From the NCBI GenBank assembly GCA_965207805.1, contig OZ242312.1, positions 2,233,204-2,297,203 on the forward strand: a DNA stretch of 64,000 nt, given 5' to 3'. Numbering within the stretch: the stretch's first letter is position 1; each line of letters begins with the position of its first letter. Source of the DNA: Gemmatimonadota bacterium (lineage in GTDB: Bacteria > Gemmatimonadota > Gemmatimonadetes > Palauibacterales > Palauibacteraceae). The notes beneath the pieces are model-generated. The model saw nothing but the letters and a program-made list of their open reading frames with translations, was not told the DNA's origin and searched no databases. The position numbers and the translations under genes were made by a program. Of the stretch, positions 12,805-61,975 are shown piece by piece.

Positions 12805-13683
12805 GTGAGTCGAAAGCGGCCTGTGGTGCGGAATGTGGCGATCGGCGAAGGCACGGTACGCGTGACGGTTCTGGGCGCGGGGCGCCCCGTCCTCTTCCTG
12901 CACGGGATCAGCGCCCACGGCCGCGCCTGGCGGCCCGTCGCCGAGCGCTTCGCCGAGGCACATCCGGGGTGGGAATGTTGGCTTCCCGACCTGCCGGGCC
13001 GCGGCGCATCGGACGTACGGACGGAACTCTCCTACACCCTCGACGACGAGGTGCGCCGGCTTCGTGAGCTTGTGCGGGCGCTGGCGCCGGACGGCCCGCT
13101 GCCGCAACTCGTCGCCGGGCACTCGCAGGGCGCGGCGATCGCGCTCGCCCTCGCGGCGGCGGAACCGGGCATCGGCGGCCTGCTGCTCTCGAATCCGGTC
13201 ACGCCGGAGATCCGGAGCCCAGCCGTTCTGGGGTTGCTGCGGTCGTCCGCGGTGCGGAGGGCGGTCGGAAGCCTCCTGGCGCCGCTTCACGCGCCGCTGG
13301 GACACCTGGTGCTTCGGCGGGCGTGCGGTCCCGACTTCCGCGCCCCCGCGGAGCTGGTCGCCGCCTATGCGCGGCCGTGGTCGAGCCCGGCGCGCGCCCG
13401 CACGCTCCTGCGCATCCTGGCCGACTGGCGCCCTTCGGAACTGGAGGACCGCATGCCCCGGCGCCCGGTCGCCGCCCGCGTCGTGACCGGCGCCCACGAC
13501 CCGAGGATCCCCGTTGAAGCCGCAAGGCGCCTCGCCTCCCGCCTCGACTGCGACTTCACCGTGTCCCCCGACGGCGGCCACGTCCTGACCGAACAACACC
13601 CCCGGCTCCTGGCCCGCCTCCTGGGCGAAATGGCTGGCCGGTTGGCCCCGCCCCCGGCAGCTTCTAGAGCTTCGGGGGCGTGA
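12805..13683 (+). CDS. alpha/beta-fold hydrolase
   Basis: HG oxyanion motif ([11 protein letters not shown]), nucleophile elbow GHSQGAAIA, and a conserved His near the C-terminus ([10 protein letters not shown]). It is divergent from nuoA. GTG start is uncertain; other GTGs lie within 30 nt. Confidence 0.7.
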
Positions 13684-14218
13684 CTCCGGTCTGGCCCTGG
13701 TACTTGCCGGCCTTGTCCGCGTAGCTGACCTCGCAGACCTCGTCCGACTCGAAGAAGAGGACCTGGGCGATCCCCTCGTTCGCGTACACGCGCGCGGGCA
13801 GCGGCGTCGTGTTCGAGATCTCCAGCGTCACGTGCCCTTCCCACTCGGGTTCGAAGGGCGTGACGTTCACTATGAGGCCGCAGCGCGCGTAGGTGCTCTT
13901 CCCCACGCAGATAGTGAGGATGTTCCGCGGAATCCTGAAGTACTCGATGGAGCGCGCGAGGGCGAAGGAATTCGGGGGGATGATGCAAACGTCGCCCGAG
14001 TACTCGAGGAAGGAGCGCTCGTCGAACTTCTTGGGATCGACGACCGGGAAGAGCGCGTTGTGGAAGATCCGGAATTCGTCGGCGACCCGCATGTCGTAGC
14101 CGTAGCTGCTGACGCCATAGGAGATGACGCCGTCGCGGACCTGGCGGTCGGCAAAGGGTTCGATCATCCCCTGCTCGCGCGCCATGCGCCGAATCCAGCC
14201 GTCGCTCTTGATCGCCAT
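13664..14218 (-). CDS. dcd: dCTP deaminase
   Basis: Region [13 protein letters not shown]...[10 protein letters not shown]...[21 protein letters not shown]...[30 protein letters not shown] is typical of Dcd. Confidence 0.85.
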
Positions 14219-14294
14219 CGGACCTCTGGGTTGGGGTCTCCTCCGACGCGTCAACCTACGCGCACGTCAAGGGGTGCGGCGCCGTGCCGGTGCG

Positions 14295-14684
14295 TCAGGT
14301 TTGGGTGAGGGCGATCCAGGCGGCCCAGATCCAGGCGGCGATGAGGGCGGCGCCGCCGAGGGGCGTGATCGCGCCGAGCCAGCCGATGCCGGACAGGGCG
14401 AGGGCGTAGAGCGTGCCGCTGAACACCGCGACGCCGCCCAGCATGAGCATCCCGGGACGTCTCCACCGGGCCTCCGGCCACCGGGCCGCGGCAAGGCCGA
14501 GGAGGATGAGCCCGAGGGCGTGCAGCATGTGGTAGCGGGCCGCCGTGTCGAAGATCGCGAGGGCCTCGGCCGAGAGGCGGCCTTCGAGCGAGTGCGCGCC
14601 GAATGCTCCGGCGGCGACTCCGAGCCCCGCGAGCAGGCACCCGGCCGCGAGGAGCTTGCGGTGCGGCGAATCGGCGCCGGTCAA
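14295..14684 (-). CDS. DUF423 family small membrane protein
   Basis: GAFGAH signature (AGAFGAHSLEGRL) and 3-4 TM helices. Start is uncertain, with a TTG candidate. The longer ORF runs to 14837 but has a non-membrane Arg-rich N-terminus. Confidence 0.5.
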   Translation of the reverse strand: MTGADSPHRKLLAAGCLLAGLGVAAGAFGAHSLEGRLSAEALAIFDTAARYHMLHALGLILLGLAAARWPEARWRRPGMLMLGGVAVFSGTLYALALSGIGWLGAITPLGGAALIAAWIWAAWIALTQT

Positions 14685-14694
14685 GCGAAGACGA

Positions 14695-14940
14695 TCAGTC
14701 GAACATCGGGGCCGCGCCCGCGCCCGCCCTCCGCGCGGCCTCGCCGGCGACCGTCTCCATGACCCGGTCCCAGCGCTCCGGACTGATCTCGGCCAGCGTG
14801 GCTTCGAGGAGGGCCGCCAGTTCGGCCCCTTCCTCACGCCGCATGGGGGAATCGCCGTCTTCGAGTTCCAGCCGCCTGCGCAGGTCGGTTGCGCGTTCGA
14901 GCAGATCCCTGTGACGGAGTCGTTCCTCGTAGCTCGTCAT
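14695..14940 (-). CDS. hypothetical 81-aa acidic helical protein translationally coupled to moaA
   Basis: ORF MTSYEERLRHRDLLERATDLRRRLELEDGD... Its ATG overlaps the moaA stop (ATGA). It lies in the C-terminal part of the longer alternate-frame ORF 14695..15951. Confidence 0.45.
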   Translation of the reverse strand: MTSYEERLRHRDLLERATDLRRRLELEDGDSPMRREEGAELAALLEATLAEISPERWDRVMETVAGEAARRAGAGAAPMFD

Positions 14941-15917
14941 CCGCCGACCTGACTCAGGGCGGCGAGCCCGCCGCTGCCGGCCGCCGTTCCCAGTTCCAGG
15001 TAGTGGCGCTTCGGCTTCCCGGCGAGCGCCTCCGCCACCGCGCCCTCGATACGGCCCGTGTCGCGCAGCGGGCCCTTCAGGTCGACCTCGTGATCGCCGA
15101 ACAGGCAGGTCCGCAGCTTCCCATCGGCGGTCAGCCGCATGCGGTTGCAGCGCTCGCAGTAGTTGTGGGAGAGGGGCGTGATCGCACCCACCGTCCCGGC
15201 GCCGCCCGGGAAGCGGTAATACACGGCGGGCCCGTTCCCCCGGGGTCCCGGGTCCGGCAGCAGGTCCTCGATCGCGCGGATCTTCTCGAGCACTTCGTCC
15301 GTCGAGATGAAACGGTCGGTGAGATGCAGGTTCTCTCCGACCGGCATGAGTTCGATGAAGCGCACATGCCAGGGCCGCTCCCGCGTGATCTCGGCGAAGT
15401 CGACGACCTCGTGGTCGTTGAGGCCCCGCATGATGACGCAGTTGATCTTGATCGGAGCGAAGCCCGCCTCCTCGGCGGCCCGCAGGCCGTCCATCGTCTC
15501 GTCGAAACGCCGCGCCGGCCGCCGGGCGATCTCCTCGAACCCATCCCGGTCGAGCGTATCCAAGCTGACGTTCACGCGCGCGACTCCGGCTTCCCGGAGG
15601 GCCGTCGCGAAACGCGGCAGGAGGATGGCGTTCGTGGAGAGCGAGATGTCGTCGATGCCGGGGACCGCGGCGATCATGCGGACGAGATCCGGCAGGTCCT
15701 TGCGGACGAGCGGTTCCCCGCCGGTGATCCGGACCCGCTGCAACCCGAGCGCGGCCATCTGGCGCACGATCTCGGAGATCTCCTCGTACGCGAGCATCTC
15801 GGGCTTGGGGATCCAGGCGAGCCCCTCCTCCGGCATGCAGTACGTGCAGCGCAGGTTGCAGCGATCCGTGACCGATATCCGGAGATACCGGATCCGGCGA
15901 CCGAACTGATCTCTCAT
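14937..15917 (-). CDS. moaA: GTP 3',8-cyclase (radical SAM, molybdenum cofactor biosynthesis protein A)
   Basis: CNLRCTYCMP radical-SAM CxxxCxxC motif, a C-terminal second cluster CxxCxRxR (NYCERCNRMRLTADGKLRTCLF), and a GG tail. Confidence 0.9.
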   Translation of the reverse strand: MRDQFGRRIRYLRISVTDRCNLRCTYCMPEEGLAWIPKPEMLAYEEISEIVRQMAALGLQRVRITGGEPLVRKDLPDLVRMIAAVPGIDDISLSTNAILLPRFATALREAGVARVNVSLDTLDRDGFEEIARRPARRFDETMDGLRAAEEAGFAPIKINCVIMRGLNDHEVVDFAEITRERPWHVRFIELMPVGENLHLTDRFISTDEVLEKIRAIEDLLPDPGPRGNGPAVYYRFPGGAGTVGAITPLSHNYCERCNRMRLTADGKLRTCLFGDHEVDLKGPLRDTGRIEGAVAEALAGKPKRHYLELGTAAGSGGLAALSQVGG

Positions 15918-15981
15918 GGCACCGATCGTGTGGGTTTCGCGGGAAGCTCATCGCTCCCCCGGGCCGGGAGCGGCGAGTGGC

Positions 15982-16019
15982 GGGACTCCGCGCAGCCTTT
16001 CGCAGCCGCGCGGAGTCCC
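15982..16019. repeat. GC-rich perfect inverted repeat (12-bp stem, 14-nt loop)
   Basis: GGGACTCCGCGC-N14-GCGCGGAGTCCC lies in the intergenic region between the small leader-like ORF and moaA. No U-tract follows. Confidence 0.5.
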
Positions 16020-16031
16020 CGCTGCGGACGA

Positions 16032-16052
16032 CTAGTGTCGATACGACACTAG
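16032..16052. repeat. 9-3-9 palindrome CTAGTGTCG-ATA-CGACACTAG (possible operator or RNA hairpin)
   Basis: Perfect 9-bp arms with a 3-nt spacer. It overlaps the stop codon of the 40-aa ORF and is about 115 nt upstream of the moaA start. Confidence 0.45.
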
Positions 16053-16171
16053 CTGATCGCCGTGACGTCCTCCTGCATCATCATGTTGTCGTCATCGTCG
16101 CCACAGTCTCCGGCAAACGAGACCGTCGCGATCATCGCGACGACCAGCAGGTTGCGGACCATTTTCAACAT
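16049..16171 (-). CDS. putative 40-aa leader-like or secreted micro-protein (MLKMVRNLLVVAMIATVSFAGDCGDDDDNMMMQEDVTAIS)
   Basis: Very strong SD (GAGGAGGA) 4 nt upstream of the ATG. It has a hydrophobic signal-like N-terminus, an acidic run and a Met triplet. It lies between moaE and moaA. Confidence 0.35.
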   Translation of the reverse strand: MLKMVRNLLVVAMIATVSFAGDCGDDDDNMMMQEDVTAIS

Positions 16172-16250
16172 GGCGTCCTCCTCGATTTGGGCGCCCGCGC
16201 CCGAGGCCGGTTGCCTCGGAATCCGTCGGACCGCCCCTGACCAGACCTTC

Positions 16251-16742
16251 CTACTCGAACCGGGCGCCGCCGGCCGGGGCTTCCGTCTCCAGGGCCGGGG
16301 CTCCCACCCAGTGCGACTCGCCATCCTCGTAGTGCTCGTGCTTCCAGACCGGCAATCTGACCTTGATCGTTTCGATAACCCACCGCGAAGCCCGGTAGCC
16401 GTCGTCGCGGTGTGCCGACGTGACCGCGATCGCCACGCTGACCTCTCCCAGCCCGAGATCGCCCACCCGGTGGGCCGCGGCGATGGAGCCCACGTCGAAC
16501 CGCTCAAGCGCCTCGTGGCAGATGGCGGACAACTCCCGTTCCGCCATCTCACCGTACGCCTCGTACGTGAGGCGCGACACCGTGAGACCGCGGTTCGTGC
16601 GGCGAACCCGCCCCTGAAAGAAGAGCAGCGCGCCGTCCTCCACCGACCCGATCTCCCGTACAATATCCTCGAACTGCGCGAAATCGTCCAGACTTTCGCG
16701 GGTGATCCAGGCTCGGACGCGGTCGTCAGCCCCCGGCGACAT
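16251..16742 (-). CDS. moaE: molybdopterin synthase catalytic subunit
   Basis: MoaE fold sequence ...LLFFQGRVRRTNRGLTVSRLTYEAYGEMAE...HRVGDLGLGEVSVAIAVTSAHRDDGYRASRWVIETIK. Confidence 0.85.
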   Translation of the reverse strand: MSPGADDRVRAWITRESLDDFAQFEDIVREIGSVEDGALLFFQGRVRRTNRGLTVSRLTYEAYGEMAERELSAICHEALERFDVGSIAAAHRVGDLGLGEVSVAIAVTSAHRDDGYRASRWVIETIKVRLPVWKHEHYEDGESHWVGAPALETEAPAGGARFE

Positions 16743-16746
16743 CGGC

Positions 16747-16998
16747 TCAGCCACCCGATACCGGGGGGATGAGGGCGACCTCGTCTCCGTCGGACAGGGT
16801 CGTGCCGGCCTCCCCATAACTCTGGTTGACGGCGACGACGACGCGCTCTGGAAGCCAGTCGAGCCCCCCGGGCCCGCGCAGGGTCTCGACGAGGTCCGCC
16901 ACGGTGCTGCCCGCCGGGAGTTCCGCCGACCCCTCCCTGCGCGCGGCGAGTTCGCCGTACACGCCGAAGAAGAGGGTGCGAACCGAGATCCGATCCAT
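16747..16998 (-). CDS. moaD: molybdopterin synthase sulfur-carrier subunit
   Basis: 83 aa ubiquitin-like protein ending in the -GG C-terminus (...LIPPVSGG). Confidence 0.8.
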   Translation of the reverse strand: MDRISVRTLFFGVYGELAARREGSAELPAGSTVADLVETLRGPGGLDWLPERVVVAVNQSYGEAGTTLSDGDEVALIPPVSGG

Positions 16999-17011
16999 TA
17001 CGGGCGCCTGT

Positions 17012-17287
17012 TCATGGGCGCGCGTCCGCCAGCGCGAGGTAGGCGAGGAGCCGCGGCACGATCCCCTCTTCGCGCAGCGTCGTCACGCGGACCCGCGTGC
17101 CATCGGGCCCCCGTGGATCCGGGAAGGCGGCCACGGCGAGGTTGCCCCGGAAGGTGCAGAACGCGATGTGCGTGTCGCTCTCGGTATCGACCCAGGCGTC
17201 CACCATCCGGTCGTCCCCGAGAAAAAAGTCTCGCGCGGCGGCCAGCACGTCCGCCGGGGCCAGCGCGCTTACGGTCTCTGTCGTCAT
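17012..17287 (-). CDS. hypothetical protein (91 aa) upstream of moaD
   Basis: ORF MTTETVSALAPADVLAAARDFFLGDDRMVDAWVDTESDTHIAFCTFRGNLAVAAFPDPRGP... GGGGAG SD upstream. No recognisable motif. Confidence 0.45.
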   Translation of the reverse strand: MTTETVSALAPADVLAAARDFFLGDDRMVDAWVDTESDTHIAFCTFRGNLAVAAFPDPRGPDGTRVRVTTLREEGIVPRLLAYLALADARP

Positions 17288-17384
17288 GGACTCTCCCCGC
17301 GTACCATCCAGCAACCGAAAGATAGGGGCGCCGCAGCCCTCTCTCAAATCCGACCGATCCCCTTCGACAAACGAGCGCCCGACC

Positions 17385-18557
17385 GTGTCCGCTACGCAGT
17401 TTTCTCCGAACGTCGCCCGGCTCAAGGCATCGGCCACGCTGGTGCTGGCCGCCCGCGCCCGGAAGCTGAGGGCGGCGGGAGTTCCGGTCGTGGACCTCTC
17501 GGCCGGCGAGCCGCAGTACCCCGCCCCGCCCTTCGCGGCCCGCGCCGGCATTCGGGCGGTGGAGGAGGGGAAGACGGGGTATCCTCCCACGTCCGGGCTG
17601 CCCGAACTGCGCGAGGCGATCGCGCGCTATCTGCGCGAGACGACGGCCGCCGAGACGGTGGATGCGGATTCCGTGATCGTGAGCGCGGGCGTGAAGCAGT
17701 CGCTGTTCAACTGCTGCTACGCCCTCTTCGGCGCCGGCGAGGAGGTGCTGGTGCCCGCGCCCTTCTGGCCGAGCTATACGACGATCGTCCGCCTCGCGGG
17801 GGCGGAGCCGGTCATCGTGGAGACGACGTGGGAGGGCGGGTTCGTGCCGACGGTCGAGGACCTCGAGGCGGCCCGCACGGCGCGGACCCGGGGACTCATG
17901 CTCAACAGCCCCGGGAACCCAACGGGTGCGGTCGTCCCGCCCGACCTTCTGCGCGACATCATGGCATGGGCGGAGCGGCACGGGATCTGGGTGCTCTCCG
18001 ACGAGATCTACCGGCGGCTCGCCTACGCGGCCTCGGCGCCGTCCGTGTTCGACATCGCGGAGCGCGGCGAGAGGACGATCCTGCTCGACGGCGTCTCAAA
18101 GGCGTTCTGCATGCCGGGGTTCCGCATCGGGTATGCCGTCGGACCGACGGACGTCGTCCGGAAGATGGCGGATCTGCAGGGACAGACGACCTCCGGGGCT
18201 GTCGGGCCCTCCCAGCACGCGGCCACGGCCGCGCTCGGCGAGAGCGCGCCTCGCGAGGCGTTCGTGGCGGACCTCCTGTCCAGGCTCTCCGAACTTCGGG
18301 AACTGGGGCTGTCGAGGTTCGCGGAGATCGATGGGATCGAGGCGTTTCAGCCCGACGGCGCCCTGTATTTCTATGGGCGGATCACCGATCGCGGCGCCAC
18401 GTCGCTCGACGTCGCCGAGCGGCTGCTCGCCGACGCGCAGGTGGCGTGCATGCCCGGGGAGCCGTTCGGTTCTCCCGGACACCTGCGCTTCAACTTCGCG
18501 GTGGAGCGGGAAGTCCTGGAAGAAGGACTGGAACGGATCGCCGGCTTCTTCGGCTGA
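17385..18557 (+). CDS. PLP-dependent aminotransferase, class I (aspartate aminotransferase-like)
   Basis: Region ...VVDLSAGEPQYPAPP...NSPGNPTGAV...LDGVSKAFCMPGFRIGYAV (SKAF Lys motif). GTG start inferred from the conserved N-terminus SPNVARLKASATLVL. Confidence 0.8.
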   Translation: MSATQFSPNVARLKASATLVLAARARKLRAAGVPVVDLSAGEPQYPAPPFAARAGIRAVEEGKTGYPPTSGLPELREAIARYLRETTAAETVDADSVIVSAGVKQSLFNCCYALFGAGEEVLVPAPFWPSYTTIVRLAGAEPVIVETTWEGGFVPTVEDLEAARTARTRGLMLNSPGNPTGAVVPPDLLRDIMAWAERHGIWVLSDEIYRRLAYAASAPSVFDIAERGERTILLDGVSKAFCMPGFRIGYAVGPTDVVRKMADLQGQTTSGAVGPSQHAATAALGESAPREAFVADLLSRLSELRELGLSRFAEIDGIEAFQPDGALYFYGRITDRGATSLDVAERLLADAQVACMPGEPFGSPGHLRFNFAVEREVLEEGLERIAGFFG

Positions 18558-18598
18558 GAACCGCCGGATGCGGCCCGGTCAGCTCCGGTGCGGCGCCG

Positions 18599-18898
18599 TC
18601 AGCCCCGGTTCTCGAGGCTCGCAGCCACCTCGTCGCGCAGCAGACGGGAGGGCTTGAAGACGGGCACCTTCCTCTGCGGCACGCGGACCGGATCTCCCGT
18701 GCGCGGATTGCGCGCCATGCGGGTCCGGCGCTCCCGAACCTTGAACGTGCCGAAGCCGCGAATCTCGATGTGGTTGCCTTGCACGACGGCTCCCTTGACC
18801 GCGTTCAGAAACGCGTTGACCACCGCGGCACAGTCCCTCTTGGTCACGCCGGGGCCGATGGCCTCGTGGACCTGTTCGATGAGATCCGCCTTCGTCAT
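18599..18898 (-). CDS. HU/IHF-family nucleoid-associated DNA-binding protein
   Basis: MTKADLIEQV...GFGTFKVRERRTRMARNPRTGDPVRVP. Strong SD GGAGGGGAGGGAGA. Confidence 0.85.
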   Translation of the reverse strand: MTKADLIEQVHEAIGPGVTKRDCAAVVNAFLNAVKGAVVQGNHIEIRGFGTFKVRERRTRMARNPRTGDPVRVPQRKVPVFKPSRLLRDEVAASLENRG

Positions 18899-18961
18899 TC
18901 TCCCTCCCCTCCGAGCGTTTGCAATCCTGTGTATTGGCGTTCCGCTCCGGGACGGGAGCGG

Positions 18962-19861
18962 CTATCTCAGCTCAAACAGGAGTCTCGGCCCGCTGGGACG
19001 CAGGGGCGCCAGCGACCCGAGCCATGCCCGCGCATCGCCGATGCTCAGCCCGCCGAGCAGGTCGAACAGAGTGACCCTCGGTTCGCGCGGCCGCACAGTC
19101 CGTGGGTCCGTTCCCAGGCCCGCCATCCGACCGGCGAGCGCGATGGTCTCCGGCAGGGTCATCAGGCCGTCGACGAGTCCGAGTTCATTTGCTTGCCGGC
19201 CCGAGAAGATCCGGCCGTCCGCCAGCCCGAGCACGGTCTCCCGATCCAGGTTCCGGTTCTCGGACACCACCTCGACGAACTGCTCGTGCACGTCGCCCAC
19301 GACTTCCTCAAGGATCTCGCGGTCCTCGGGAGAAAGGGCGCGGGCGTAGCCGCCCAGGTCCTTGTGCTCGCCGCTCGCCACGACTTCCCAGCCGACGCCG
19401 ACCTTCCGAAAAAATTCCTCGGCGTTGGGGAATTCCATGATGACGCCGATGGACCCGGTCATCGTGCCGGGCAGCGCGTACACGCTGTCGGCCCCGACCG
19501 CGGCGTAATATCCCCCGGAGGCTCCCACATCGCCCATCCACGCGAGGACGGGCCGGTCGTCGTCGTCCCGCAGATCGCGGATGGCTTCGAAGATGCTCTG
19601 CGAGGCCCCCACGGTCCCTCCCGGGGACTCGATCTCGATCACGAACGCGCGCACGCCGGGGTCTTCCCTGAAACCGTCGAGCGCCTTCGTGAACGCAGCT
19701 TCGTCCGTGATCACGCCCCGCAGCGGGACGACCGCGACTCGTCCTCCCGCGAGAAACGACGTATTCCCCACCGTCCACCAGATGGACAGGACCGCGCCCA
19801 CGCCGAAGAGGCCGAGCAGCGCCAGGAGCGCGATCACCGTGTTTCGCTTGTCGTAGGTCAC
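18962..19861 (-). CDS. sppA: signal peptide peptidase SppA (36K type)
   Basis: N-terminal TM segment, region ...VIEIESPGGTVGASQ...GDVGASGGYYAA..., and Ser-Lys dyad context. Confidence 0.85.
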   Translation of the reverse strand: MTYDKRNTVIALLALLGLFGVGAVLSIWWTVGNTSFLAGGRVAVVPLRGVITDEAAFTKALDGFREDPGVRAFVIEIESPGGTVGASQSIFEAIRDLRDDDDRPVLAWMGDVGASGGYYAAVGADSVYALPGTMTGSIGVIMEFPNAEEFFRKVGVGWEVVASGEHKDLGGYARALSPEDREILEEVVGDVHEQFVEVVSENRNLDRETVLGLADGRIFSGRQANELGLVDGLMTLPETIALAGRMAGLGTDPRTVRPREPRVTLFDLLGGLSIGDARAWLGSLAPLRPSGPRLLFELR

Positions 19862-25318: not shown

Positions 25319-26151
25319 TCGGATTCCTCTCGGGAAGGATTAGGGGCGAAGGCCCCTGTCGGCGATTCGTCCCCGTCCAGGGGACGCAAGGTGCGCGCAA
25401 AACTAACGGTGGCCACGCTGCGGAATCCAGCCTCGGCCAGCGTCTCGGCGCAGGCGATGGCGGTGGCTCCGGTCGTGAGCACATCGTCGATGATGATGGC
25501 GCTCCGGCATACGTCCGGGGGGTCGGCACGTAACCGGAAACGACCCTGTACGTTCGTTCGGCGCCGAGCCCCGCGGAGGCCCGCCTGGCGGCCGCCGCCC
25601 GGGAGGCGGTGGAGGAACGACCCCAGCGACCCGACGCCGCGGTCGGCCAGGCCGCGGGCGAGTTCGCCGGCCTGGTTGAATCCCCGTTCCCGCAATCGGG
25701 CCGGCGTGAGCGGCACCGGGACCAGCCAGGGCGCGCCTTCGCCGATACGAGACGCGATCGCCTCGGCGCCAGGCGCCATGCGACCGGCCATCCAGGGCGC
25801 GAGGGCGCGCCAGTGGTCGTATTTCAGGGCACGTACCGTGCGGGCGGCCAGGCCCTCGAAAGCGAAGGGGGCGTCGGCCGCGACGAAGACGTCGGGCCAC
25901 TCCTCGCACGTGCCACACCGCACAAGCTCCCCGGCCGCCGCGGCAAGGTTGCCGAGCGGCTGAGCGCAACGGAAGCAGCGGGGATTCGCCAGCCGAGGAA
26001 GTCGAGACTGGCACAGAGCGCAGAGCGGCGGGCCATCGGGAGCGACGCCGCGCCGGCACCCTACACATGCCGCGGGCACGAGGGCATCGAAGGCCGTGGC
26101 TGCGGCTCTGCCCACGAGCCGCAGCCGGTCGCCGCGCGCCACGGCCCTCAC
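25315..26151 (-). CDS. comF: ComF-family protein (double zinc-ribbon plus phosphoribosyltransferase domain)
   Basis: CxxC...CxxC pairs (CVGCRRG...CALCQS; CFRCAQPL...CGTC) and PRTase motif [12 protein letters not shown]. The GTG start overlaps the aroE stop. Confidence 0.7.
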
Positions 26152-41568: not shown

Positions 41569-41596
41569 CCGGGCCGGCCGCGTCGGCCGGCCGCGC

Positions 41597-54673: not shown

Positions 54674-54705
54674 GGGAGGGCGGCATCGCGCGATGCCGCC
54701 CTCCC
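54674..54705 (-). terminator. perfect 15-bp GC-rich hairpin immediately 3' of the secreted aminotransferase gene
   Basis: GGGAGGGCGGCATCG-CG-CGATGCCGCCCTCCC, followed on the minus strand by a GUUUGG short U-run. Coordinates are approximate. Confidence 0.5.
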
Positions 54706-57328: not shown

Positions 57329-57367
57329 GCTCGTCCCCGCTGAAGGCTATCGAGCCATGCGACACCG

Positions 57368-57395
57368 CCGGAGCGGCGAACGTTTGCCGCTCCGG
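57368..57395. repeat. perfect 10-bp hairpin CCGGAGCGGC-N8-GCCGCTCCGG between BNR gene and downstream gene
   Basis: Intergenic, no U-tract. Coordinates are approximate. Confidence 0.45.
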
Positions 57396-57418
57396 CGGGC
57401 CACGGGAGCCACGGACTG

Positions 57419-60878: not shown

Positions 60879-61892
60879 TCAACGCCGACTCCCCGGCGTC
60901 GAACTGCAGGGTGGAGGGTCGTCTTCCTTCAGCGCGCGGATCCGCCGCACCAGCCGGTCGCGCCAGGCGCAGAGGGGTTCGGTGGCGGATGTTCCGTACA
61001 TCCCCTCCGTTTCGGCGTGGATCCCAGCGATCACGCGGTCCGAGAACTCGGGGTCCGCCTCCAACTCGCGCCACATCTCGCGGTACGCGTCGCCGTAGCG
61101 CCCGTAGTAGTCCCCCGCGCCGCCGTCCGCGTTCGTGTGGCCGGTGCCGAACGGCCCGAGCAGCGCCCAGCGCAGCCCCAGTCCTTCGCGGACCACCGTG
61201 TCGATCGCGTCCGCGGAGGCGGCGCCCGATCCGTACAGGAAGACGGCCTCGCGGATCAGGGCGGCCTGAAGCCGGTTGAGAAGGAAACCGGACAGGTAGC
61301 GGTTCATCTGCACGGGAGACTGACCCACGCTGTCGAGGAAAGAGAGCGCGGCGGTCAGCACTTCGCGGCGCGTGCCCTCCCCCGGAAGGACTTCCACGAC
61401 GGGGATGACGTGCGGCGGATTCACGGGGTGCGCGACGACGCAGCGACCCGAACCCGCGAGACCGGCCGCAATCCGCGACATGTCGTGAGCGGAAGTCGAA
61501 CTGGCCAGAATCGTGCCGGGACCCGCCACGGCGTCCAGTTCGGCGAAGATCCGCTGCTTGACCGCGAGCGTCTCCGGCCCGCTCTCCTGCACCCATCCGG
61601 CGCCCGACAGCGCCTCGTGCACCGTGTCGCAGCGGATCGCCCGCTCTTCCCCGGCGGCCCCGGAATCGATGAATCCGAGGGCCTCGTCCTCGTTCGCGGA
61701 GTTCCGCGCCCAATCGAGTGCGCGCGCCAACTGCTCCGGGTCGGGGTCGAAGACGCGCGTCTCGCAACCGGCCCGGGCGAATACGCGGATCCAGCTCCGG
61801 CCGATGACGCCGGCCCCGACTACGGCAACAGTTCGAATCGTGGGCTGGGTCACGGGCCTGACATCGTCGGCGAAACGAGGGCGAAGGGTCAT
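60879..61892 (-). CDS. 3-hydroxyacyl-CoA dehydrogenase family protein (NAD-binding)
   Basis: Rossmann motif VAVVGAGVIGRSW and a 3HCDH C-terminal domain. The ATG is inferred at Met129 of the longer ORF; the upstream part is a Ser/Arg-rich artefact. Confidence 0.75.
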   Translation of the reverse strand: MTLRPRFADDVRPVTQPTIRTVAVVGAGVIGRSWIRVFARAGCETRVFDPDPEQLARALDWARNSANEDEALGFIDSGAAGEERAIRCDTVHEALSGAGWVQESGPETLAVKQRIFAELDAVAGPGTILASSTSAHDMSRIAAGLAGSGRCVVAHPVNPPHVIPVVEVLPGEGTRREVLTAALSFLDSVGQSPVQMNRYLSGFLLNRLQAALIREAVFLYGSGAASADAIDTVVREGLGLRWALLGPFGTGHTNADGGAGDYYGRYGDAYREMWRELEADPEFSDRVIAGIHAETEGMYGTSATEPLCAWRDRLVRRIRALKEDDPPPCSSTPGSRR

Positions 61893-61975
61893 GCCGGAGG
61901 AGGGACTCGAACCCTCAAGGGATTGCTCCCACCGGATTTTGAGTCCGGCGCGTCTGCCAGTTCCGCCACTCCGGC
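61892..61975 (-). tRNA. tRNA-Leu (anticodon CAA)
   Basis: Reverse complement GCCGGAG-UG-GCGG-AACUGGCAGA-CGCG-CCGGA-CUCAAAA-UCCGG-[long variable arm UGGGAGCAAUCCCU]-GAGGG-UUCGAGU-CCCUC-CUCCGGC-A. This is a class II tRNA with the D-arm of tRNA-Leu and T-loop GGTTCGAGTCC. No encoded CCA. Confidence 0.8.

Follow-up and report, generated by a model that had tools for sequence, protein, structure and literature searches.

The DNA analysed here is a stretch of 64,000 nucleotides (the window) from contig OZ242312.1 (assembly GCA_965207805.1) of a marine Gemmatimonadota bacterium, a Candidatus Palauibacter. Our subject is a short open reading frame (ORF), called below the micro-ORF, which lies together with several inverted repeats between the molybdenum cofactor (Moco) biosynthesis genes moaE and moaA. 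On the minus strand the moaE ORF reads from 16817 to 16251 and the ATG of moaA is at 15917 (ORF table and minus-strand reading of 15700-16500), which leaves a gap of 333 bp. The micro-ORF (16171->16049) translates as MLKMVRNLLVVAMIATVSFAGDCGDDDDNMMMQEDVTAIS. It is preceded by a stem-loop, the tip of which is the inverted repeat CCGAGGC-N5-GCCTCGG (16201-16219), and is followed by a GC-rich hairpin with perfect 12-bp arms (15982-15993 and 16008-16019), while its stop codon lies in a palindrome (Table 1). The coordinates given in a preliminary description of this DNA for the micro-ORF, its Shine-Dalgarno (SD) sequence, the palindrome, the GC-rich hairpin, the CCGAGGC-N5-GCCTCGG repeat, moaE and moaA all proved exact. 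The identity of the neighbours is clear: MoaA matches TIGR02666 over its full length with 371.6 bits (cutoff 284), and MoaD and MoaE are likewise recognised by family profiles.

Related loci were collected by a MoaA-based scan with one genome per species, which found metagenome-assembled genomes (MAGs) of Candidatus Palauibacter with MoaA sequences 90-96% identical to that of the window, and other Longimicrobiales and Gemmatimonadales at about 65% or less. Palauibacter belongs to the order Palauibacterales of the Gemmatimonadota, the marine and sponge-associated PAUC43f group; in the paper describing this order (PMC10469786) we found nothing on Moco. The coding sites of the peptide homologues, plus those of the window's exact peptide, amount to 15 distinct Candidatus Palauibacter loci (individual loci are denoted below by L numbers), and the gene order orf91-moaD-moaE-micro-ORF-moaA-orf81-DUF423-dcd is common to all 15. 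All 15 loci thus have the micro-ORF, whose conservation the preliminary description had left to be looked for, in the moaE-moaA gap, and it is single-copy and fixed in position in all genomes examined. Outside the genus, in L005 (MoaA 81% identical) and in L007-L011 (63-65%), moaE abuts or overlaps moaA and there is no micro-ORF.

The start codon, SD sequence, reading frame and stop codon of the micro-ORF are intact in 15/15 loci, and the SD sequence is of the GGAGG type at the same spacing in all of them. The first 32 residues of the peptide form a core, which is 78-100% identical to that of the window across the loci and is therefore about as conserved as MoaA (89-96% there), while the non-coding DNA on both sides of the micro-ORF has only 42-63% nucleotide identity across the same loci. 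By Nei-Gojobori counts the proportion of synonymous differences (pS) was 0.12-0.68 and that of non-synonymous differences (pN) 0.01-0.25, with pN/pS mostly between 0.07 and 0.4. Within codons 1-32 the variable sites are distributed over codon positions 1, 2 and 3 as 8, 5 and 24 (of 32 each), a strong excess at the third position (24/32 vs. 13/64; Fisher p=3.6e-7). Twenty residues are invariant: M1, K3, R6, N7, L9, V10, V11, I14, A15, T16, F19, A20, G21, D22, C23, G24, D26, D28, N29 and M31. The C-terminal tail of the peptide is variable. The GC content at third codon positions is 0.88, like that of the window's genes; the SD-usage statistics of the window were too noisy to use. The micro-ORF is overlapped by an ORF on the plus strand (15977-16240), and the wobble positions of the sense strand coincide with codon position 1 of that ORF, thus the plus-strand ORF is not the conserved entity. 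An ORF of 40 codons would, by itself, be within chance expectation in such GC-rich DNA. It is not the length but the conservation and the codon-position pattern which lead us to conclude that the micro-ORF is very probably a real gene.

In the databases searched, no relatives of the peptide were found outside this group. A peptide search returned ten homologous clusters of 39-42 amino acids, all from the Palauibacter clade, and two of the ten carry the NCBI name 'hypothetical protein'. Compared with 1.84 billion representative proteins, a profile made of these ten peptides retrieved only two Palauibacter representatives and one further match (P0011), which aligned only with the hydrophobic stretch, did so in four places (a hydrophobic repeat), and was taken as spurious. 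Searches of Pfam, NCBIfam, PHROGs and the PDB sequences gave nothing above noise for the peptide, nor any solved relative, and we found no description of the micro-ORF or of a leader peptide at moaA in the literature. The micro-ORF-free relatives outside the genus and the lack of homologues in the databases indicate that the module is a genus-level insertion encoding an orphan family.

Table 1. Features of the moaE-moaA intergenic region and its surroundings (positions in the window)
Feature	Position	Strand	Evidence or remarks
Micro-ORF, 40 aa + stop	16049..16171	-	conservation, synteny, selection
Shine-Dalgarno sequence GAGGAGGA of the micro-ORF	16176..16183	-	GGAGG 5 nt from ATG
3' stem-loop, GC-rich, ~18 pairs with G.U, no U-tract	15980..16022	-	fold, conservation
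5' stem-loop, extended, 48 nt, 19 pairs, ends 5 nt before the SD region	16189..16236	-	shared dot-bracket, covariation
Perfect 9-3-9 palindrome over the stop codon	16032..16052	.	sequence, fold
moaA, GTP 3',8-cyclase, downstream neighbour	14937..15917	-	TIGR02666 equivalog, full length
moaE, molybdopterin synthase catalytic subunit	16251..16817	-	ORF; NCBIfam MoaE match; Pfam MoaE in orthologous loci
Promoter-like TTGAGA-17-TATCTT	17319..17347	-	upstream of orf91-moaD-moaE; 1 found vs. 0.3 expected
Third, weaker hairpin CTCG-CGCTCCC...GGGAGCG-CGAG	15947..15977	-	-19.1 kcal/mol, z=-2.1, 7/200 shuffles as stable
moaA-proximal motif AACCC(T)CA-N6-CGGTGCC	15918..15938	-	directly before ATG, all Palauibacter loci

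An AlphaFold2 model based on the ten-sequence alignment has a helix at residues 2-23, with a predicted local distance difference test (pLDDT) score of about 80, and a disordered tail. Residues 1-20 resemble a signal peptide or a membrane helix: K3 and R6 are invariant, and L8-V17 is uncharged and hydrophobic. The charged n-region and the hydrophobic h-region agree with a Sec-type signal peptide, in which the h-region has 7-15 residues, and by eye S18-F-A20 before G21 fits the -3/-1 cleavage rule. The weak profile matches of the peptide were all to the signal-peptide (N-terminal) ends of the profiles. Scanning the other proteins of the window for lipoprotein-like or signal-like N-termini did not yield a useful comparison set. 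For the N-terminus we infer one of two roles, that of a signal peptide of the Sec type, with a possible cut after A20, or that of a short membrane anchor of N-in/C-out orientation. The balance tilts slightly toward the cleaved signal, because the uncharged hydrophobic stretch (L8-G21, 13-14 residues) is short for a transmembrane helix; the putative form after cleavage may include GDCGDDDDNMMMQEDVTAIS. The part following G21 is strongly acidic and contains one invariant Cys and a cluster of Met residues. Whether the peptide is cleaved or anchored, this acidic tail (GDCGDDDDNMMM...), which includes the Cys and the Met residues, would come to lie outside the cytoplasm. Our best guess is that a cation, or else a partner protein in the membrane, is plausibly bound there.

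Two more specific assignments were tried and rejected. In the lipobox (PROSITE PS51257: [LVI..]-[AST..]-[AGS]-C) no charged residue stands just before the Cys. The peptide has S-F-A-G-D-C at this place and the invariant D22, at position -1 before the Cys, fails the rule, thus the product does not qualify as a lipoprotein. The segment DDDDNMMM was compared by eye with the EF-hand loop: positions 1, 3 and 5 fit, positions 6 and 12 do not fit and are not conserved.

The second conserved component of the module is the 3' hairpin. In the window its folding energy is -38.1 kcal/mol (z=-6.95), and none of 200 shuffled sequences was as stable. A hairpin is present at this place in 15/15 loci, with 10-16 pairs, energies of -20 to -37 kcal/mol and z-scores of -2.9 to -7.5 relative to dinucleotide shuffles, and it begins 9-14 nt after the stop codon in the relatives and 28 nt after it in the window. 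The stems fall into at least five types which are unrelated in sequence: GGACTCCGCGC, GGGGCCCCGGG, GGGGGAGAGTCG, GGGGGGACGGCCG/GGGGGGAGTCGGG and GGGGGGGCGACC. In an alignment of the window's clade 95.7% of the hairpin cells are paired, as opposed to 39-57% in slid controls, and three pairs have double compensatory changes. The G.U pairs of the stem would be A.C on the opposite strand. Since pairing is kept while the sequence changes, and since the G.U pairs are possible only in the sense transcript, the hairpin is an RNA structure and not a protein-binding site on the DNA. It is not repeated in the window, and we discarded the idea that it belongs to a family of repetitive extragenic palindromic (REP)-like elements.

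The 3' hairpin has one half of a canonical intrinsic terminator, the GC-rich stem. A U-tract directly 3' of the stem is missing: the sequence which follows is CCACTCGCCG, it is pyrimidine-rich with 1-3 T in 10 nt across the loci, and a terminator scan gave no match here. That scan also bore out the statement of the preliminary description that neither this hairpin nor the palindrome has a U-tract. Perfect 9-14-bp GC hairpins without U-tracts were found right after other stop codons of the window (26098-26126, 41572-41592, 54674-54705 and 57365-57398), one of them (41572-41592) between convergent genes. Because the same kind of hairpin follows these other stops, the 3' hairpin appears to be an ordinary gene-end hairpin of this genome, and we predict that it most likely acts as a partial terminator or as a stabiliser of the 3' end.

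The stem-loop on the 5' side is conserved in a similar manner. We took the structure from the window sequence and then applied it to the alignment. The dot-bracket notation is identical in the window and in L081/L090 despite the different sequences (for example, the outer stem is GGGCG/CGCCC in one and GGAUG/CAUCC in the other). In the alignment of 12 sequences 91.6% of the stem-loop cells are paired, 8 of the 19 pairs have changed on both sides, and slid controls reach 30-54%; the z-score in the window is -2.8. Both stem-loops thus seem to be maintained by compensatory changes or by wholesale replacement of the stem. The interval from the 5' stem-loop to the SD sequence is too short to hold a promoter, so the micro-ORF must be transcribed through this stem-loop, which in turn suggests that hairpins of this kind are not efficient terminators. 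Just 5' of the stem-loop there is a GGTCA or (T)TGGTCA motif (16238-16242, minus strand), the sequence of which is kept across clades with differing stems. It is probably not a sigma-70 promoter, because no matching -10 element follows.

The palindrome is of a different nature. As RNA it would fold with -14.1 kcal/mol (z=-4.7; no shuffled sequence was as stable), and it occurs once in the 64-kb window (0 expected). Bases 16032-16048, which read TGTCGTATCGACACTAG on the coding strand, are a 17-nt insertion duplicating CTAG: in the alignment CTAG[TGTCGTATCGACACTAG]TCG... replaces CTAG-CCG.... With the insertion, the distance from the stop codon to the GC-rich hairpin has grown from about 13 to 28 nt. 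The palindrome is identical in 8 contigs of the window's species, which come from different samples, and was not found in any other species (L001/L096/L101, L002, L003, L006, L089, L004 and L081-L091); L001 lacks it even though its peptide is identical. The conservation in relatives, which the preliminary description had made a mark of function for the palindrome as for the micro-ORF, therefore does not hold for the palindrome, and on this comparison it is a species-specific insertion without a conserved role. The notion of a repeated or mobile element was also dropped, as the palindrome is single-copy in the window and confined to one species. The fact that the 17-nt insertion has been fixed in the species implies that the distance between the stop codon and the hairpin is not critical.

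The spacer between the micro-ORF and moaA differs in length among the loci (106 to 241 nt). In Palauibacter moaA has no SD sequence, in contrast to the relatives outside the genus, which have an SD-like GGAGG or GGAGA. Of the further elements of this segment (Table 1), the third hairpin is kept only in the window's clade. A promoter-like element, TTGAGG-17-TAT(C/A)TT, lies downstream of the 3' hairpin in L081, L085 and L090 (it was detected by the tool in L090, and by eye, with 8/12 matches, in L081 and L085); its hexamers are conserved and the sequence between them has diverged. When the spacers of these loci (L081:4129-4370, L085:4123-4361, L090:4126-4327) were compared with those of L082/L083 (4129-4265), the element was found to be in a segment of about 110 nt which is missing from L082/L083, and these encode an identical micro-peptide. 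In the window's clade neither inspection by eye nor a scan revealed a convincing promoter of the sigma-70 or the extracytoplasmic function (ECF) type between the hairpin and moaA. The probable promoter of the operon is the TTGAGA-17-TATCTT element upstream of orf91.

Taken together, we consider it reasonably probable that the region contains a Palauibacter-specific gene for an orphan, acidic micro-protein, secreted or membrane-anchored, which is located within the moa operon and is bracketed by intercistronic stem-loops. Transcription of the micro-ORF would begin at the operon promoter and run through the 5' stem-loop, its translation would rely on its own strong SD sequence, and the peptide would be exported or anchored in the membrane with the acidic tail outside. 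The flanking hairpins are of the U-less GC type seen after other genes of this genome and most likely serve as intercistronic mRNA-end elements. They would terminate transcription leakily and/or hold up exonucleases and processing, so that the levels of the moaDE and micro-ORF message could be set apart from that of the SD-less moaA. In the window's species moaA would be reached by read-through, and some sister species may have a separate promoter for it.

Several points weigh against this explanation or limit it. The whole case is comparative, and the export and the topology of the peptide are predicted; the hydrophobic stretch could be an anchor and the signal uncleaved. This reading does not account for the invariance of FAGDCG, which looks like a lipobox yet fails as one. 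Most double changes of the 5' stem-loop track one deep split between two clades, and so represent few independent events, and the z-scores of the individual sequences are modest (-0.7 to -3.6). As no promoter is seen between the 3' hairpin and moaA in the window's clade, efficient termination at the hairpin would leave moaA unexpressed. The hairpins may be terminators, stabilisers or processing sites.

It is useful to compare the module with known systems. Very small exported or single-pass proteins include the entericidins EcnA/EcnB (41-48 aa), the Pf3 coat protein, the M13 procoat protein, KdpF, AcrZ and MgtS. The Palauibacter peptide shares with them the size of about 40 residues, a positive N-terminus followed by one hydrophobic helix, a short acidic segment of the translocatable kind, and the location of the gene amid larger operon genes. 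It differs in being unrelated in sequence, confined to one genus, no lipoprotein because of D22, and in having a hydrophobic stretch of only 13-14 residues. With regard to the RNA, intercistronic stem-loops are known to set segmental mRNA stability or partial termination, as do the Rhodobacter puf hairpins after pufA, the REP sequences of E. coli malE-malF and the RNase III sites of phage T7. Here, too, stable hairpins are found between operon cistrons and bracket the cistron of a small hydrophobic polypeptide, and in Palauibacter the structure is conserved and the sequence is not; unlike their counterparts, the Palauibacter hairpins do not form a repeat family in the window, and their effect on the mRNA is a prediction. 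Intrinsic terminators without a U-tract ('I-shaped' terminators) have been described for high-GC bacteria such as mycobacteria. The 3' hairpin has the same form, a long GC stem about 10-14 nt after the stop codon and no U run, and so do the hairpins at other gene ends of the window. The difference is that the downstream genes of the operon still need expression, thus the Palauibacter hairpin, for which termination is a prediction, can be at most leaky. As a whole, the arrangement falls into none of the protein or RNA families described so far.

The location of the gene invites a more ambitious version of this explanation, namely that the micro-protein is tied to the Moco pathway: an exported or anchored peptide rich in Cys, Asp and Met would bind a metal ion or modulate a membrane transporter (e.g. 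of molybdate or tungstate), and would be expressed independently of moaA by means of the two stem-loops. We regard this as unlikely. If it were true, the marine and sponge-associated Palauibacter would possess a small accessory factor of molybdenum-cofactor metabolism that is both new and specific to them.

The preliminary description had suggested, as one of two possibilities, that the arrangement is a translation-coupled attenuator of moaA. According to such a model the micro-ORF would encode a leader peptide, and the progress of the ribosome (slowed, for example, at Met-Met-Met when methionine or S-adenosylmethionine (SAM) is scarce) would decide whether the hairpin forms and stops transcription ahead of moaA, the product of which is SAM-dependent. 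Several observations speak for it. A very stable hairpin comes after the ORF, which itself lies directly upstream of moaA, the NMMM run is conserved with few exceptions, and the 9-14 nt by which the hairpin follows the stop codon in most species would place it near the edge of a terminating ribosome. In the window's clade, moreover, no promoter is seen after the hairpin and before moaA, so that moaA must be fed by read-through. The likeness to the trp, his and pyrBI attenuators is also real: a short ORF with its own SD sequence, then a hairpin, upstream of a biosynthetic gene.

The similarity does not extend to the features by which those attenuators work. In an attenuator only the regulatory codons would be expected to be conserved, whereas here purifying selection acts on the whole hydrophobic and acidic core, far beyond the codon run (the 20 invariant residues are spread over positions 1-31 and the changes are mostly synonymous). 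The Met run itself varies: MMM is present in most loci, L089 has MMQ and L090 has MM-GM, and as Met has a single codon, codon choice is uninformative. When the ORF and the 5' arm of the hairpin were folded with the 3' arm withheld, no conserved antiterminator was detected; pairing of the 5' arm with upstream sequences gains 2.6-15 kcal/mol, as compared with 20-37 kcal/mol for the hairpin, and the partners differ from lineage to lineage. A hairpin around the stop codon can be seen by eye in every lineage, but it was rejected as a conserved element, because it is no better than dinucleotide shuffles (z -1.7 to +0.9). The spacing is not fixed either, as the window's species tolerates the hairpin at 28 nt after the 17-nt insertion. 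There is no U-tract, three lineages have a promoter-like element past the hairpin, and hairpins of the same type follow ordinary genes. On these grounds the attenuator no longer seems tenable to us as the favoured explanation, and we consider it quite improbable.

A riboswitch was the other form of control to be considered. The Moco riboswitch has been found upstream of Moco biosynthesis genes in other phyla (PMC2408646), and the position upstream of moaA would suit it. The covariance model of this riboswitch (RF01055), which the preliminary description had proposed to look for, has no match in the region upstream of moaA: there was none at E<=10 in 15700-16500, none at the gathering score in the whole window, and none at E<=0.1 in nine related loci. 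Other Rfam families did not give a credible match here; the best one was the gyrA RNA model (20 bits, threshold 45), which recognised a generic hairpin.

It could also be argued that the micro-ORF has no function, being a chance ORF or the decaying remnant of a lipoprotein gene. In GC-rich DNA an ORF of 40 codons is nothing unusual, the sequence recalls that of a lipoprotein with an FAGDC that fails the lipobox, and in the last ~10 codons, which make up the C-terminal tail, variation is even across codon positions (8/7/7). A remnant would however not be expected to show a pN/pS well below 1 and an excess of third-position changes, nor to keep its start, SD sequence, frame and stop in every locus while the flanks diverge to about 50% identity. 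This explanation is very unlikely.

The remaining alternatives are weaker still. As an alternative to the attenuator, the preliminary description had proposed a micro-protein, secreted or located in the membrane, together with an operator. The first half of this proposal has held up, given the SD sequence, the selection on the peptide, the predicted helix at residues 2-23 and the signal-like profile matches; the second half has not. It is true that the 64 kb contain no second copy of the 9-3-9 palindrome, which is perfect, and that a long inverted repeat lies upstream of moaA, as would suit DNA operators through which a dimeric regulator acts on moaA. But the palindrome is present in one species only, where it arose as a 17-nt insertion, and the GC-rich inverted repeat swaps its sequence between clades while keeping its pairing, including the sense-only G.U pairs; operators are highly improbable here. 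A type I toxin-like hydrophobic peptide, made from a structured mRNA under the control of an antisense RNA, would account for the short hydrophobic product, for the stable hairpins flanking the mRNA and for the orphan status of the family. We find it just as hard to accept: the gene is located on the same strand inside a housekeeping operon, has a strong and accessible SD sequence and a fixed single-copy position in all genomes, a crude scan of 13500-19500 revealed no sigma-70-like promoter on the opposite (plus) strand, and, as far as is generally known, type I toxins do not have such an acidic tail. Least of all would we favour a precursor peptide of the RiPP type (synthesized by ribosomes and modified after translation) acted on by the adjacent radical-SAM enzyme. 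In its favour, the gene directly upstream of a radical SAM gene codes for a small peptide with a Cys. But the enzyme is a MoaA of full length and equivalog level beside MoaD and MoaE and not a dedicated maturase, L005 and L007-L011 keep the same MoaA and lack the peptide, and the N-terminus of the peptide is like an export signal and unlike a RiPP leader.

If the micro-protein gene is accepted, a well-supported, clade-restricted small protein gene, clearly under selection and with export-like features, becomes known from a widespread, though uncultured, lineage of marine and sponge-associated bacteria, in some MAG records of which it is listed as 'hypothetical protein'. The operons of Palauibacter would seem to be punctuated by long GC stem-loops without U-tracts, conserved in structure, which bears on operon and terminator prediction in Gemmatimonadota. 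At the same time tempting but wrong annotations (Moco riboswitch, attenuator, operator) can be removed from the region upstream of moaA. The short peptide (GDCGDDDDNMMM...) offers a target for synthesis, and together with the two RNA elements is open to heterologous work.

Some observations on the neighbourhood may be added. Two small ORFs without a Pfam match or any family are conserved in all the Palauibacter loci: orf91 (17012-17287, minus strand) is directly upstream of moaD, and orf81 (14695-14940, minus strand) starts 4 nt inside the end of moaA, with an ATGA overlap that suggests translational coupling. In a TARA Oceans contig (L089:811-1829) moaA is split into ORFs of 127 and 212 aa, as a result of a frameshift or an assembly error. 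A transfer RNA gene (61892-61975, minus strand) is the sole gathering-level Rfam match in the 64-kb window.

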